Positions 3,738 through 56,690 of a DNA stretch of 64,000 nt are shown piece after piece (the first letter of the stretch is position 1; each line of letters opens with the position of its first letter). The translations under genes were made by a program, and so were the position numbers. The stretch is from contig OZ251518.1 of the NCBI GenBank assembly GCA_965242965.1, forward strand, positions 3,488,001 to 3,552,000. The letters run 5' to 3'. This DNA comes from Candidatus Poribacteria bacterium. Lineage in GTDB: Bacteria > Poribacteria > WGA-4E > WGA-3G. The notes below the pieces were generated by a model, which was not told the origin of the DNA, ran no database searches, and worked only from the letters and a program-made list of their open reading frames with translations.

Positions 3738-3742
3738 TATGA
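3721..3742 (+). pseudogene. First ~7 codons of a second DUF5615 toxin gene, truncated at a MITE end
   Basis: ATGAAGGTGATGATTGATATGA matches the start of 3089..3463, then runs into GAGGGTGTTTCATAA. Confidence 0.75.
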
Positions 3743-3975
3743 GGGTGTTTCATAACTCCGTTTCGGTATTTATTTCCCCTTGCGGGGACGGGCGAATACC
3801 GATAGAAAAGCGAGGGGGCGCATCGGGCCCACCTCTGTAGTTCGGGAGCGCCCGCTCCCGAACGGATCAGGATCAGGCGATCCTGACCTACAGGGGTGAC
3901 GAGGTCTGCGAGCCAAACGCATGGCGAGGGACAGGCCCTCGCCCTACGTGAAGGGGCGGCGTTTTTTTCACCGTA
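3741..3975. mobile_element. MITE left end (GAGGGTGTTTCATAA) followed by REP hairpins
   Basis: Same terminal sequence as the complete elements at 32559 and 55086; no matching right end seen nearby. Confidence 0.65.
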
Positions 3976-6404: not shown

Positions 6405-6900
6405 TCAGTCCCGTAGGAGAGACCTCCTAGTCTCGATTCCCTGTCGTCGCGCCGTCCCGGTCTTGATTTCCCCGTAGCGCGGGGGCCTGTCCCCCGCGAT
6501 CGTTGGATTACACTTGCGCGAGAACGCTGGCGAGGGACAGGCCCTCGCCCTACGGTGAGGGCGGGCGTTTCTTATCGTAGCGCGGGGGCCTGTCCCCCGC
6601 GAGTGTTCGTCCCTCACAGCATGGCGAGGGACAGGCCCTCGCGCTACGGTGAAGGGGGCGTTTTTTTATCGTAGCGCGGGGGCCTGTCCCCCGCGATCGT
6701 TGGATTACACTTGCGCGAGAACGCTGGCGAGGGACAGGCCCTCGCGCTACGGTGAAGGCGGCGTTTTTTTTATCGTAGCGCGACGGCCCTCGGATGCCAT
6801 ACGCGCATCCGAGCGGGTTTCCCCCGCGAGCTCGCCCAGAAGGTTGCATCGAGACCGGGAGGGCTCTCCTACCGGAAAAAACGAGTTATGAAACACCCTC
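6405..6900. repeat. REP/BIME-like cluster ending in a MITE right end (TTATGAAACACCCTC)
   Basis: Alternating inverted REP pairs; terminal sequence at 6886-6900. Confidence 0.85.
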
Positions 6901-30582: not shown

Positions 30583-30970
30583 CCGGTAGGAGAGACCTCC
30601 CGGTCTCGATGCCGCGGTGGGCTTATTTTCTCGTGCAGGCGTGCCTTATCTTGACCTGTTCGGGTGCAGGCGCACCCGAACTATAGGGCTTGGGTGCGCG
30701 CCGCCTGTAGTTCAGGAGCGCCTGCTCCTGAATTGGTTGTGCTAGGCGATTGCAAACGACAGCGGGTGTCTCAATGTTTTCCCGATACGAAAAATCGAGA
30801 CCGGGAGGTCTCTCCTACGGGGACATCGCTTGCATCGAGATCAGGAGGTCTCTCCTACAAGGACATCGCTTGCTCGGTATTCACCCCCAATCGGGATAAA
30901 TACCGAAACGGATTTATGAAACACCCTCATTTTAGTCCCCGGTAGGCGCGCTTTGCAAGCGAGCCTACCG
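30583..30970. repeat. REP cluster with MITE right end (30914-30928) and REP-E hairpin
   Basis: GTAGGAGAGACC..., GTAGTTCAGGAGC..., TTATGAAACACCCTC, GTAGGCGCGCTTTGCAAGCGAGCCTAC. Confidence 0.85.
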
Positions 30971-32558: not shown

Positions 32559-32855
32559 GAGGGTGTTTCATAACTCGCCCAACGTCGCGAGGACAGTCAC
32601 CGGTGCTGCGGTAAAAAAACGCCGCTCCTTCACGTAGGGCGTGGGCCCTCGCATGCCACACGCGCATGCGAGCGGGTTTCCCTCGCCATGCGTTTGGCTG
32701 TCAGACCGCATCCCCTCTGTAGGTCAGGATCGCCTGATCCTGACTCGTTTGTGATCAGGCGATCACAAACTACAGAGGTGGGCCCAATGCCTGCCGGTAT
32801 TCGCCCTCCCTCCAAGGGCGGAATAAATACCGAAACGGTGTTATGAAACACCCTC
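32559..32855. mobile_element. Complete MITE with perfect 15-bp terminal inverted repeats carrying REP hairpins
   Basis: GAGGGTGTTTCATAA (32559) ... TTATGAAACACCCTC (32855); flanked by 17-bp direct repeats with 2 mismatches. Confidence 0.8.
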
Positions 32856-35285: not shown

Positions 35286-35740
35286 GAGGGTGTTTCATAA
35301 ATCCCCGTAGGAGAGACCTCCCGGTCTCGATGCAATAGAGCGGCGAGCCTACCGGGGCGGCGGCAGAAAGCCCCTTCATCGTAGGGCGAGGGCCTGTCCC
35401 TCGCCATCGTCGGCGCAATCCAACGCTCGCGGGGGACAGGCCCCCGCACTACAAAAAACGTCTCTTAGGTCCGTAGGACCTTAATGTCTATAGCATGCGC
35501 GAACGCGAAGAATCCTAAGGTCCTTTAGGTCCTTAATAGTTTTTGACATGCGGCGCGTTTTTTATTAAGGACCTAAAGGACCTTGAAAACGTAACGACAC
35601 GTGTATCTATAGACATGTAGGTCCTAAAGGACCTAAAACGTCCCCTCTTGACGCTGGCCAACGCGGGGCCTGTCCCCCGCGCTACGGGAACATCGAGACC
35701 AGGAGGTCTCTCCTACGGGGAGCCCTCGCCTTACGGGCAC
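35286..35740. repeat. MITE left end plus REP cluster and AGGACCTAA element
   Basis: GAGGGTGTTTCATAA at 35286; nested inverted element at about 35465-35640. Confidence 0.85.
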
Positions 35741-39879: not shown

Positions 39880-40168
39880 CGGTAGGAGAGACCTCCCGGT
39901 CTCGATTACCGTAGGGCGAGGGCCTGTCCCTCGCCATGCCTCGGCACCCCGAACGATCGCGGGGGACAGGCCCCCGCGCTACGGTGAAAAAACGCCGACT
40001 CTTCACGTAGGGCGAGGGCCTGTCCCTCGCCAGGCTGCGGTTTACCGGAAGATCGCGGGGGAAACCCGCTCGCATGCGCGTGTGGCATGCGAGGGCCCCC
40101 GCGCTACGGTAATCGTCGCGGCAGTCTCTCCTACCCGGCGGGCATCGAGCGATTTATGAAACTCCCTC
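39880..40168. repeat. REP cluster ending in MITE right end variant TTATGAAACTCCCTC
   Basis: REP-C, REP-B/A pairs, loop-expanded REP-A, terminal sequence at 40154-40168. Confidence 0.85.
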
Positions 40169-43179: not shown

Positions 43180-44076
43180 GGACAACCTACGCGGGGGACA
43201 GGCCCCCGCGCTGCGGAAAAAAACGGCACGTCATCGTAGGGCTTGGGCCCTCGCATGCCACACGCGCATGCGAGCGGGTTTCCCTCGCCATCGTCCGCGC
43301 TACGCAAAAAACGTCTCTTGTTCTCTTCAGGTCCGTAGGACCTAAAAACATAACTTGACGATGGAGATCGCGGGGGACAGGCCCCCGCGCTACGATGAAA
43401 AAAACGGCGTGCGTTACCGTAGGGCGAGGGCCTGTCCCTCGCCATCGTTCTCGGCCACGGACACTCGCGAGGGACAGGCCCCCGCGCTACGGTAAAAAAC
43501 GGTATGTCATTGAACGCTCGCGGGGGCCTGTCCCCCGCGCTACCGGGAAAAAACGGCACTTCACCGTAGGACCTTAATGTCTATAGCACGCGCGCCCGCC
43601 AAGAACGCTAAGGTCCTTTAGGTCCTTAATAGATTTTGCCAGGTCCACGCGTTTTTTATTAAGGACCTAAAGGACCTTGAAAAGGTGCCTGCACGTGTTT
43701 CTATAGACATTAAGGACCTAAAGACCTAAAACGCCACCGTTTGACGATGGAGATTGCGGGGGACAGGCCCCCGCGCTACGGGGAAAAAACGGCACTTCAC
43801 CGTAGGGCGTGGGCCTGTCCCTCGCAATCGTTCGGGCACCCCAACACTCGCGGGGGACAGGCCCCCGCCCTACGGGAACATCGAGACCGGGAGGTCTCTC
43901 CTACCGGTGTTGCATCGAGATTCGAGGTTTCTCCTACCGGAAGGAATCGGGCCCATCTCTGTAGTTCGGGAGCGCCCGCTCCCGAACGGGTCAGGATCGG
44001 GCGCTCCTGAACTACAGAGGTGATGACGTTGCGCGATTTATGAAACACCCTAGGCGCGCTTTGAAAGCGCGCCTAC
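43176..44076. repeat. Large REP cluster with AGGACCTAA element, MITE right end and REP-E between convergent genes
   Basis: All GTAG-REP types A-E present; TTATGAAACACCC at 44038-44050. Confidence 0.9.
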
Positions 44077-50699: not shown

Positions 50700-51012
50700 G
50701 ATTTGCGAGGGACAGGCTCTCGCCAGCATCCGCGCACTCCAACGCGCGCGGGGGCCTGTCCCCCGCGCTACGATAAAAAACGCCGCCCCTCACCGTAGGG
50801 CGAGGGCCTGTCCCTCGCCATCGTTCTTGCGCCAGGCCCTGTAGTTCGGGCTCGCCGGATCCTGACCTGTTTGTGATCAGGCGCGCACAAACTACAGCGG
50901 GGGAAACACACATCATGCCGATGGAGATCGCGGGGGACAGGCCCCCGCGCTACGGGACAATCGAGACCGGGAGGTCTCTCCTACCGAACACATCGAAATA
51001 TGAAACACCCTC
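50700..51012. repeat. REP cluster with MITE right end; ~200 bp shared nearly identically with 56460-56660
   Basis: Same REP order and spacers (…CAAACTACAGCGGGGGAAACACACATCATGCCGATGG…) in both places. Confidence 0.85.
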
Positions 51013-53440: not shown

Positions 53441-53679
53441 GTGCATTCTCCTGGGTAAGGATGCCCGATGTTGCAAAAAAATTCAACCAATACTTTCAGG
53501 TAATCAAGGGTGTTTCCTAACTCGTTGTTGTCAAAAGGGTTTCGCGACACCCTGAACAATTCCGTTTCCCCGGTAGGAGAGCCCTCCCGGTTTCGATTGC
53601 TCCCCGTAGGAGAGACCTCCTGGTCTCGATTTCTTCCGTGTGTTCAGAAGAGGGACGTTAGGTCTGACAGCGCAGTGGC

Positions 53680-54742: not shown

Positions 54743-55075
54743 TCACTCATGCTGAAGCGTGTTTACGTTGTTCTCAGGTTGGGTATAGTCCACAAACGCT
54801 GTCGGATCTGTCCCGTTGAGGTATTCCTCAATGTCGGTGTATCCGTCGCTGTCTCTATCCTTTGAGGCATTGGACGCGTCACGAGGATTAAGCCCGTATC
54901 TGACTTCCCATTCGTCCGGCAGACAATCTCCATCGCTGTCAAGGGGCGCAGACAGACTCTTGAGTTCCGGCCATCCGCCGACATCTGCCTGTGAGTCAAT
55001 AATACCGCATTTTGTTGGTAAGATTAATAGCGCGGCGAACGTGATAATTGCGCGAAGAAAGTTTAGACTCTTCAT
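54743..55075 (-). pseudogene. Probable internal-deletion remnant: signal peptide joined directly to a pectate-lyase-type C-terminal Ca-binding tail
   Basis: GIIDSQADVGGWPEL...DSDGDCLPDEWE..YGLNP.D..D.D.DGYT.IEEYLN immediately after a signal peptide, with no catalytic domain. Confidence 0.55.
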
Positions 55076-55085
55076 GAGTTTACCT

Positions 55086-55296
55086 GAGGATGTTTCATAA
55101 CTTGTTTTCCCCGGTAGGCGAGACCTCCTGGTCTCGATTTCTTCTCGATAGGCGAGACCTCCTGGTCTCGATTTCTTCTCGGTAGGCGAGACCTCCTGGT
55201 CTCGATGTGGTGCGTATCGGGACAGGGATGTCCCTCCTACTGGGAAACATCAAGACACCCGCTCGTTTGCAAGAAGGCGATTTATGAAACACCCTC
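55086..55296. mobile_element. Complete MITE with 15-bp TIRs, tandem REP-C cargo and perfect 9-bp flanking direct repeat
   Basis: AGTTTACCT|GAGGATGTTTCATAA ... TTATGAAACACCCTC|AGTTTACCT. Confidence 0.88.
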
Positions 55297-55314
55297 AGTT
55301 TACCTCACCAAAGT

Positions 55315-56109
55315 TCAACGAGTTAAGCCTAAGAATTCATAGGCATCAATGTAACCGTCTGGCAATTCATGGACGGTTATCCCTGGTGGAATTTCACCTT
55401 CATCAAGATATGGCTCATAGATATGCGCTGTGTCGGGATGACCGCGGGTGACTCCCGCATATCTATGAGTTATCCCGTCATCATCTGTCCAGTAGTCCCA
55501 TTTAACATAAACAACATCAGGATAGAGCAGATAGACTTTACCGTCGGCATCACCTGTAACGCCTACGTTTTCAAGTGATATTCCTTGTTTCCAGAATTCA
55601 ACGATGAGTCGTTTTTGGAGCTCAAGAGCTTTACGCATATCTGAGTCTCCCATTGAAGCAAGACTTTTGAATATGTCCGGTTCAGGGAAGTCCTCTGGAA
55701 TCTCTGGATAAGGCCCGAATCTGAAGGGCGATATAGATAGGGCTACCGATTCTTCCTCGGCGGTTTCTTTGTCGGAAGCCGGCAATTCCGGGGCTGCTGC
55801 GGTATCCCCGCGCGCCGCCTTTGCATTCGGAAGACGCTCTGTGATGTCAAACACCGTTGCCGCACCATTGTCCGTTGCAACGGATTTCGCGGCTTGTTCT
55901 TCCGCGTCTCTGTCTGTTATCTGCCGCGGCTGTTGTGCATTCGTGGTCTGGCGATTTTCTAGTTGCTGTAGGAACCGTTGGGTTCTGACTTCGTCGTTTC
56001 GGATGTCGCGTTCGCCATGCCACCGATAGAGCAGGCTGCCGGCGATGAGAAGGACGCAGCCGATGAGCCCGGCGCGAACGAGTTTGCTTGAAAGTATGTC
56101 CTGTAACAT
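55315..56109 (-). CDS. Membrane-anchored hypothetical protein (paralogue A')
   Basis: N-terminus nearly identical to 52922..53440; SPFRFGPYPEIP motif; C-terminal AYEFL. Confidence 0.7.
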   Translation of the reverse strand: MLQDILSSKLVRAGLIGCVLLIAGSLLYRWHGERDIRNDEVRTQRFLQQLENRQTTNAQQPRQITDRDAEEQAAKSVATDNGAATVFDITERLPNAKAARGDTAAAPELPASDKETAEEESVALSISPFRFGPYPEIPEDFPEPDIFKSLASMGDSDMRKALELQKRLIVEFWKQGISLENVGVTGDADGKVYLLYPDVVYVKWDYWTDDDGITHRYAGVTRGHPDTAHIYEPYLDEGEIPPGITVHELPDGYIDAYEFLGLTR

Positions 56110-56202
56110 GTGCATTCTCCTGAGTAAGGATACACGATTTCGCAAAAGAAGTCCACCAATACTTTCAGGTAATCATCAAAGTTGCGTCGGATGTCTTTAA
56201 CT

Positions 56203-56690
56203 GAGGGGGTTTCATATTTCGATGCGTTTGGTAAGAGAGACCTCCTGGTCTCGATTTCTTCCCGGTAGGAGAGACCTCTGGTCTCGATGCAATCGGACAG
56301 CGCGCCTCCCGGGGCCGCGGCGGCAGAAATCCCCCCTTCATCGTAGGGCGGTGGGAAGACCTGTCCCTCGCCAGCATCCGCGCACTCCACCGCTCGCGGG
56401 GGAAACCCGCTCGGATGCGCGTATGGCATCCGAGGGCCCCCGCGCTACGAAAAAAAACGCCCCCTCACCGTAGGGCGAGGGCCTGTCCCTCGCCATCGTT
56501 CTCGCGCCAGGCCCTGTAGTTCGGGCTCGCCGAATCCTGACCCGTTTGTGATCAGGCGCGCACAAACTACAGCGGGGGAAACACACATCATGCCGATGGA
56601 GATCGCGGGGGACAGGCCCCCGCGCTACGGGACAATCGAGACCGGGAGGTCTCTCCTACGGTGACACTGCTTGCATCGAGACCGGGGGGT
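56203..56690. repeat. MITE left-end variant plus REP cluster
   Basis: GAGGGGGTTTCATATTTCGATG is the inverse of 50991-51012; REP-A/B/C/D follow. Confidence 0.8.

Follow-up and report, generated by a model that had tools for sequence, protein, structure and literature searches.

A non-autonomous DDE transposon that probably carries RAYT-type REP hairpins between its ends in a Candidatus Poribacteria genome

[quoted passage not shown] We put the probability of this reading at about 0.82. It follows up an original prediction, made from the letters of the window without database searches, which joined DDE-type ends and HUH-type REP hairpins in one chimeric mobile element; the perfect 9-bp duplication, the terminal inverted repeats (TIRs) and the REP hairpins that it described at 55077-55305 were all recovered there, and the 229 bases resolve into a 211-bp element (55086-55296) with one copy of the duplication on each side. 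The two ends of this copy are inverted copies of each other with one mismatch in 15. The sole open reading frame (ORF) of at least 50 amino acids within the 211 bp is a 65-amino-acid frame starting with GTG that runs across the hairpins, and there is no transposase gene inside.

Paired ends and target-site duplications

With up to two mismatches allowed, the 15-bp end motif was found 13 times in the window, where 0.12 occurrences are expected, and the largest count in 100 shuffles was one. The original prediction had listed about a dozen, and its positions are correct except that the end placed at 53507 begins at 53506. Across the 5.66-Mb chromosome contig (C1) of the source genome (G000 in our set) the same search returned 989 ends (396 exact, 411 with one mismatch and 182 with two), and none of the 15-bp motif was counted in the 38-kb contig C2. 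The consensus of the ends consists of a 15-bp core with an extended form of 17-19 bp, GAGGGTGTTTCATAAATCG. When the 807 ends with at most one mismatch were aligned, conservation continued inward to about position 20 (GAGGGTGTTTCATAA[A/C]TC[G/C].T), and the eight outward flanking bases showed a weaker palindromic preference, A.TTAA.T.

Inward-facing pairs dominate among adjacent ends within 3 kb, with 304 in the '+-' arrangement, 120 in '-+', 52 in '--' and 46 in '++'. The inward pairs shorter than 1 kb number 290, with a median length of 365 bp and a 5-95% range of 206-727 bp. Counting as a duplication any flanking direct repeat of at least 7 bp if exact, or of at least 8 bp with one mismatch, we found one in 159 of these 290 pairs, compared with a mean of 5.35 in 20 shuffles of the right flanks among elements, so that the paired ends carry flanking duplications far above chance, as expected of the DDE-type MITE ends that had been proposed. 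The lengths are concentrated at 8-9 bp (140 pairs), with 16 pairs at 10-14 bp and three at 7 bp; an exact 8-bp flank repeat is present in 62 pairs and an exact 9-bp one in 25. The duplications differ between copies and are AT-rich, with 21.7% GC in a genome of 54% GC, and the inverted complementarity of the two ends stops 0-2 bases past the motif in 279 of the 290 pairs. Because the direct repeats are different for each copy and the inverted complementarity goes no further outward, the flank matches are duplications and not the outer parts of longer inverted repeats.

REP hairpins between the ends

A GTAG hairpin is present in 275 of the 290 paired elements. Within 200 bp of an end, such a hairpin lies on the inner side of 838 of the 989 ends and on the outer side of 95, and the asymmetry is found both for paired ends (507 inner against 47 outer of 580) and for solo ends (331 against 48 of 409); the prediction that the ends mark the borders of REP clusters and face inward thus holds for the whole chromosome contig. 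We defined MITE territory as the paired elements plus 400 bp inward of each solo end, which amounts to 4.9% of the genome, and used an equal outward area as the control. The territory holds 28.6% of the REP-A cores (control 2.0%), 51% of the REP-B cores (1.3%), 36.5% of the REP-C cores (2.5%) and 20% of the REP-D cores (2.1%).

The interiors share an architecture. A 266-bp master form, reading end, linker, REP-A, linker, inverted REP-A, linker, REP-B doublet, two linkers and end, is covered to at least 90% by 62 of the 290 pairs and to 70-90% by a further 70, giving 132 pairs at 70% or more, and in the consensus of 43 master-form copies the linkers are conserved as well as the REPs. A second subfamily, to which the copy at 55086-55296 belongs, is marked by the end variant CATAT, with a REP-C array and a REP-D directly behind it; a REP-C core is found within 60 bp after the end at 170 of the 989 ends.

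Hairpins made of GTAG plus a stem number 6,628 on both strands of the source genome, compared with 612 on one strand of a reversed-sequence control, and the core motifs of the four families were counted 4,687 (REP-A), 1,476 (REP-B), 1,753 (REP-C) and 373 (REP-D) times. The sole RAYT gene of this genome (154 amino acids, C1:3147499-3147963) has REP-B arrays on both sides and no other REP type, and a RAYT homologue with 56% identity in the sister genome G108 (locus L042, G108:C1:3732903-3736352) is flanked by REP-C and REP-D. Since REP-B flanks the one gene and REP-C and REP-D the other, the GTAG hairpins of the copy at 55086-55296 are, judged by sequence and gene neighbourhood, genuine RAYT-type REPs, as the original prediction had them, with their own RAYT not in the source genome, where none was found for REP-A, REP-C or REP-D. 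Against the 1,476 REP-B cores of the source genome, G152 has 145 (its control giving 34) and G108 has 60 (45 in the control); three genomes from other genera show control-level counts. This is paralleled by the end counts, which are 989 at up to two mismatches in the source genome, eight at up to one mismatch in G152 and one exact end in G108; the parallel, resting on three related genomes of which one is fragmented (G152, 210 contigs), is descriptive and does not amount to a test.

Empty sites in sister genomes

In a comparison covering 400 kb of G108, with ends scored at up to three mismatches, both flanks of 18 elements of the source genome were located. None of the 18 orthologous intervals contains ends and 14 contain no REP core; altogether they hold five REP cores in G108 against 77 in the source genome, each MITE insertion into a REP-free site bringing 1-10 REP cores with it. 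At several junctions, such as 1851241 and 2287089 of the source genome, G108 has a clean single-copy target. G152 is of the same genus and about 90% identical in syntenic DNA, and its eight ends include those of a 263-bp master-form element and of one of 198 bp that holds a REP-B doublet. At the site of the 198-bp element the source genome has a clean single-copy target, and G152 in turn lacks the source-genome elements at 3019427-3019888 and 3020976-3021364. Such reciprocal empty sites indicate that REP-loaded elements inserted in both lineages after their split. From the shared architecture, the AT-rich non-REP target and the empty sites, we take the REPs to be cargo of the element and not its target.

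The autonomous element and its relics

The transposase expected from the original prediction was found behind the same ends in related Poribacteria genomes, and not in the source genome. The exact 18-mer end was present in 23 of a sample of 150 further genomes of the phylum, these all belonging to the same family-level group, with no more than 11 copies in each compared with 186 in the source genome. One of them, G077, has six assembled copies of a 1,112-bp insertion sequence (IS) with perfect 17-bp ends identical to those of the MITE and one 332-amino-acid ORF counted from the first ATG, which in copy L010 lies at 278-1273 on the minus strand; three of the six have target duplications, of 8, 8 and 9 bp. 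In G117 and G136 several contigs begin or break 37 bases inside an identical end, which is the mark of a collapsed multi-copy element, and G030 has a 1,111-bp inward pair known from its ends alone. The other three copies in G077 have no matching duplications and share half-sites with one another: AATTAAGT stands to the right of copy L010 and to the left of L015, and AATTGTCT to the left of L011 and to the right of L015, which suggests rearrangement by recombination between IS copies, or else assembly joins.

The 332-amino-acid product matches the Pfam family DDE_Tnp_1_3 (PF13612) at 35.1 bits against a cut-off of 27. The IS1182-like affinity suggested earlier is not borne out: the protein scores about 20 bits or less with the NCBIfam models for IS1182 and IS5 (19.2 bits against a cut-off of 270 for transpos_IS1182), the duplications are 8-9 bp long, and the transposase appears to be distantly IS982-like. 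A relation to IS5/IS903, which had been considered from the end sequence, was dropped when Pfam and NCBIfam pointed to DDE_Tnp_1_3 and IS982. Among annotated plasmid proteins the nearest are named 'IS982 family transposase', and it shares 23-25% identity with them across more than 80% of the length. A large protein collection contains 1,310 homologues at E<=1e-5; among the 120 of them listed, most have 331-335 amino acids and a few 273-342, all but two carry PF13612, many lie on contigs of about 1.1 kb, and the few that are named are hypothetical proteins, the organism, where given, being Candidatus Poribacteria. IS982 elements, as described in ISfinder, are about 1 kb long with one ORF, duplications of up to 9 bp and ends beginning AC. 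The element described here, at 1,112 bp with one 332-amino-acid ORF and 8-9-bp duplications, has ends that begin GAGGG, unlike the AC of IS982. We therefore treat the parent as what seems to be an unnamed, distantly IS982-like and phylum-restricted IS, and do not assign it to IS982 as a member.

The source genome has no match to PF01609 (DDE_Tnp_1) or PF13612, and no pair of ends in it encloses a transposase: the 17 pair combinations of 0.8-15 kb with matching 8-10-bp flanks contain ordinary genes or REP arrays. A tblastn search with the transposase found only a two-piece remnant at C1:2371347-2371744, corresponding to residues 1-65 and 208-271 at about 41% identity, and BLASTN found eight copies of the last 50-150 bp or so of the IS, six of them abutting REP arrays. 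These relics imply that the parent was once present in this lineage and has since decayed. The 43 master-form copies have a mean pairwise identity of 86.9% with a maximum of 94%, which gives no sign of recent copying. From the relics and the mean copy identity of 87%, the MITE family is probably now immobile in the source genome.

Remodelling and nested repeats

One orthologous insertion is an intact 263-bp element in G152, whereas the source genome keeps only its right end, with a different and longer interior that contains extra repeats. Later remodelling of the interior in this manner would explain the 409 solo ends. MITE-type linkers lie outside the territory in 24-34% of cases and are found near 125 of the 719 REP-B cores outside it, so that some of the apparently free REPs are MITE debris and most are not. 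The pairs of 894 and 1,094 bp with exact 9-bp repeats are long REP-filled elements.

In some copies, for example C1:90059-90316 and 178867-179160, a palindrome of about 30 bp, AAACCCGCTCGGATGCGC...GCATCCGAGGG, is nested in the loops of the REP-A hairpins, making a repeat within a repeat within a MITE. Another palindromic family, built of GGTCCTTTAGGTCC / GGACCTAAAGGACC units, is nested inside some MITEs (C1:3019427-3019888 and 3014560-3015080).

We also considered whether the ends occasionally enclose genes, as had been suggested. Two long pairs have exact 8-bp repeats, about the number given by chance, since by our estimate about three exact 8-bp matches are expected among the candidate pairs, and the suggestion was not sustained. 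The 2,902-bp pair of ends at C1:54311-57212 has an exact 8-bp flank repeat and encloses an open frame of 607 codons (stop to stop), the C-terminal part of which is ankyrin-like; the flank match of the pair is within the estimated chance, and we do not take it as evidence of gene cargo.

The copy at 55086-55296 and the other ends of the window

The copy is preceded by the left target-site duplication AGTTTACCT (55077-55085, 9 bp, identical to 55297-55305) and starts with the left TIR GAGGATGTTTCATAA on the plus strand (55086-55100), which has one mismatch to the family consensus. Three REP-C hairpins follow on the plus strand: copy 1 at 55114-55137, with the GTAG tag and the stem-loop CGAGACC/TCCT/GGTCTCG, copy 2 at 55148-55171, in which the tag has decayed to ATAG, and copy 3 at 55182-55205, again with GTAG. 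A REP-D hairpin in the opposite orientation (55216-55240, GTAG on the minus strand) is followed by a low-copy linker (55241-55281), the first 30 or so bases of which are common to a larger composite repeat without TIRs, found elsewhere in the genome and made up of REP-C twice, REP-D and linker. The right TIR TTATGAAACACCCTC on the minus strand (55282-55296) is an exact consensus end, the reverse complement of GAGGGTGTTTCATAA, and abuts the right duplication AGTTTACCT (55297-55305), an exact direct repeat of the left one.

This copy sits between two co-oriented minus-strand ORFs, 55315-56145, which has no Pfam match, and 54743-55075, which encodes a small TSP3-repeat protein. The insertion begins one base upstream of the ATG of the TSP3-repeat gene, and the two ORFs would be 18 bp apart if the element and one copy of the duplication were taken away. 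Read on the minus strand, the left duplication provides an AGG nine nucleotides before this ATG, so that the AGG was preserved by the duplication. The four REP hairpins probably lie inside a two-gene transcript (54743-56145). In G108 the small gene next to this locus forms part of a larger gene. An Rfam scan of the window returned rRNA and tRNA only.

Both filled junctions of the copy are represented in Logan contigs of four public runs, which come from three studies. The empty sites that the original prediction looked to were found in G108 and G152 for other copies; for this one, no contig skipping the whole copy was seen among the Logan contigs listed, which are short and cannot show the absence of an empty allele. 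Some Logan contigs have joints within the REP-C array (window 55136-55277) that skip 69-134 bases with sides of just 19-26 letters; these are probably cross-matches from other REP copies, or may be variants in unit number.

A second paired element of the family, 297 bp long (32559-32855), has no abutting duplication. The ten bases to its left, CGGTTAAATT, recur 7 bp beyond its right end, and this displaced 10-bp repeat may be what had been reported as a 17-bp repeat. Direct repeats of 17 or 39 bp, as reported earlier, were not found in the window, and the only direct repeat abutting both ends of a pair there is the 9-bp one of the pair 55086/55282. The solo ends of the window are, on the plus strand, 3741-3755, 35286-35300, 53506-53520 and 56203-56217, the last two with two mismatches each, and, on the minus strand, 6886-6900, 30914-30928, 40154-40168, 44038-44052 and 50998-51012, the last three with one mismatch each.

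Discussion

We propose the following scenario for the family to which the copy at 55086-55296 belongs. The 332-amino-acid transposase, supplied in trans, would bind both inverted ends and insert the MITE at an AT-rich A.TTAA.T target by a staggered cut, leaving a duplication of 8 or 9 bp; the ends, the duplications, the target and the matching IS are observed, and binding and catalysis are deduced. The founder elements would already have held GTAG-tagged REP hairpins between their ends, one founder form with a REP-A doublet and a REP-B doublet, the second subfamily with a REP-C array and REP-D. Each transposition thereby also copied REPs into REP-free intergenic sites, as the shared architecture and the empty sites show. 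The interiors would have been remodelled afterwards through changes in the number of REP units, nested insertions and loss of one end, for which we have one direct case and otherwise the pattern of the copies, and the transposase gene would have decayed in the source genome. Of the two-tier system first envisaged, in which TIR shells disseminate REP arrays, the part that stands is that REPs travel inside the TIR shell; a cooperation between two tiers is not supported, what we see being hitch-hiking and later remodelling.

Several observations weigh against this scenario. A recognisable duplication is lacking in 131 of the 290 pairs, and 409 of the 989 ends are solo; 329 of these 409 have no partner within 1.3 kb even at four mismatches, the count for a wrong-side control being 325. 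The MITE is not the sole vehicle of the REPs, as 49-80% of the REP copies, depending on the family, lie outside MITE territory. The 290 pairs show 232 different architecture strings, part of which is detection noise, and a large part of the REP content seen today may postdate insertion or have been altered since. With no intact transposase in the source genome, mobilisation in trans is what the identical ends lead us to suppose, and the transposase itself matches NCBIfam transpos_IS982 at E=9.4e-15 with only 54.9 bits against a cut-off of 130. As for the copy at 55086-55296, neither its interior at full length nor the whole 211 bp is repeated elsewhere in the genome, the best other matches spanning its positions 1-166 or 18-187 at 74-80% identity; the interior is a piece of the composite repeat of REP-C twice, REP-D and linker that is also present without ends elsewhere; and no empty site is available for this copy, as G108 lacks synteny at its locus.

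One rival is the opposite order of events, in which a plain TIR element spread first as the MITE, with single REPs or doublets inserted later by a RAYT or by recombination, the interior being a landing pad and not a vehicle. The variety of architecture strings, the differing number of REP-C units between copies, the palindromes nested in some REP-A loops and the orthologous insertion that is a canonical 263 bp in G152 and remodelled with extra repeats in the source genome would all fit such a history. We nevertheless consider it unlikely, because 43-62 copies at unrelated sites have the same doublets, identically placed and with their linkers conserved, and the 43-copy consensus points to the REPs and linkers of different MITEs as each other's closest relatives. 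The REP-C subfamily is accompanied by the CATAT variant of the TIR, the copy newly inserted in G152 has its REP-B doublet already, and insertions into REP-free sites arrive with their REP cores. Remodelling is real but secondary.

Far less probable, in our view, is that a TIR element prefers to insert beside or into existing REP clusters, so that REPs are its target, as the original prediction had offered as its other option. IS elements that target REPs are well documented (PMC3184786), and a REP core is present in four of the 18 sister-genome intervals. What is duplicated here, however, is AT-rich DNA of the A.TTAA.T type and not REP sequence; the excess of hairpins inside the ends over outside contradicts such a preference, and the REP-free state of 14 of the 18 intervals in G108, together with the clean empty sites without REP, leaves it little room. 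We give slightly less weight still to the idea that the 15-bp motif is a protein-binding or regulatory module of a mosaic resembling the bacterial interspersed mosaic elements (BIMEs), spread whole by a RAYT (HUH) enzyme. The interior is indeed BIME-like, with REPs in alternating orientation and fixed linkers, and the linkers found outside TIR territory would be natural for it. The 8-9-bp direct duplications speak against it, as IS200/IS605-type Y1 transposases are not known to produce them; moreover, in relatives a DDE transposase gene lies between identical ends, and the single RAYT of the source genome is flanked by REP-B alone. Thus, a DDE-type MITE with REP cargo remains the explanation that we prefer.

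Elements of this picture have been described separately in other bacteria. The Cardinium endosymbiont cOegib harbours MITECca01, derived from the parent ISCca4 of the IS982 family, which is reported at about 240 bp and 169 copies, makes up 3.5% of the chromosome and is the most abundant mobile element there (PMC9769881). Both families appear to be lineage-specific bursts of gene-less elements with the inverted ends of an IS of IS982 family or IS982-like type in a host-associated bacterium. Unlike the family described here, MITECca01 is said to keep sequence of its parent IS by the left end, and intact parents remain in its genome (PMC9769881), whereas the Poribacteria MITE shares only its 17-19-bp ends with the parent, has a REP interior, reaches 290 pairs and 989 ends and has no intact parent. 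The BrickBuilt MITE of Porphyromonas gingivalis likewise is described as holding another repeat class, a 23-nt minisatellite with a variable number of units, between small inverted-repeat ends, always at intergenic sites (PMC4596501). By the same account its cargo differs in being a simple tandem repeat and not independently mobile, transposase-associated REPs, and it has 19 copies and not hundreds (PMC4596501).

The REPs themselves resemble published REP/REPIN-RAYT systems (REPINs being REP doublets forming hairpins) and BIMEs in their 5' GTAG tag, GC-rich stem, thousands of copies, inverted doublets and position beside a single-copy RAYT (PMC2817692, PMC3116915, PMC3733652, bioRxiv 10.1101/2021.07.10.451892). 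The accounts that we draw on place REPs or REPINs and MITEs in classes apart, with enzymes, duplication rates and fates that differ (PMC3733652, PMC3184786, bioRxiv 10.1101/2021.07.10.451892). Here, unlike in those systems, the REP doublets lie inside TIR-bounded units with target duplications. Association of a DDE or other IS with REP clusters is also known for IS1397, IS621 and IS1594, for which the REP is described as the target and comes to lie outside the IS (PMC3184786); the target of the Poribacteria MITE is AT-rich non-REP DNA, and its REPs are inside. In the literature searched, with ISfinder, subscription journals and supplementary files not included, no paper was found that reports REPs carried inside a MITE or that mentions these repeats in Poribacteria. 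Bursts of IS982-derived MITEs, a MITE with a repeat array and REP-targeting IS elements are thus already known; the case described here has REPs and MITEs nested genome-wide.

A further step, which we offer tentatively and regard as rather doubtful at present, is that in this genus of Poribacteria RAYT-type REPs gained in a DDE-type MITE a second and fast vehicle, the burst of which largely drove the expansion of a whole REP family. It is based on the location of half of the REP-B cores in MITE territory and on the excess of REP-B in the source genome (1,476 cores against 145 and 60 in its sisters), set beside the end counts of the three genomes. If true, REP and REPIN populations, which are usually modelled as slow vertical replicators tied to one RAYT, can jump at transposon rates; REPs could persist after their own RAYT is lost, as REP-A, REP-C and REP-D have none found in the source genome; and REPs carried by the MITE might still be acted on by a RAYT, so that the same DNA would be mobilised along two independent routes.

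Lastly, the family is a clear case of a MITE swarm outliving its transposase, in a sponge-symbiont bacterium, and the breakage of related short-read assemblies at these sites is explained by its roughly 1,000 ends and the thousands of hairpins. MITE territory, at about 5% of the chromosome, contains 20-51% of every REP family, and a genome's REP census can therefore be in part the by-product of a DDE transposon burst. Such a by-product would confound population-genetic inference from REPINs and REP-based estimates of RAYT activity, and carriage by a MITE offers a route by which REP families may outlive their RAYT. The main interest of these findings is that bursts of a transposon can enlarge REP populations and redistribute them.

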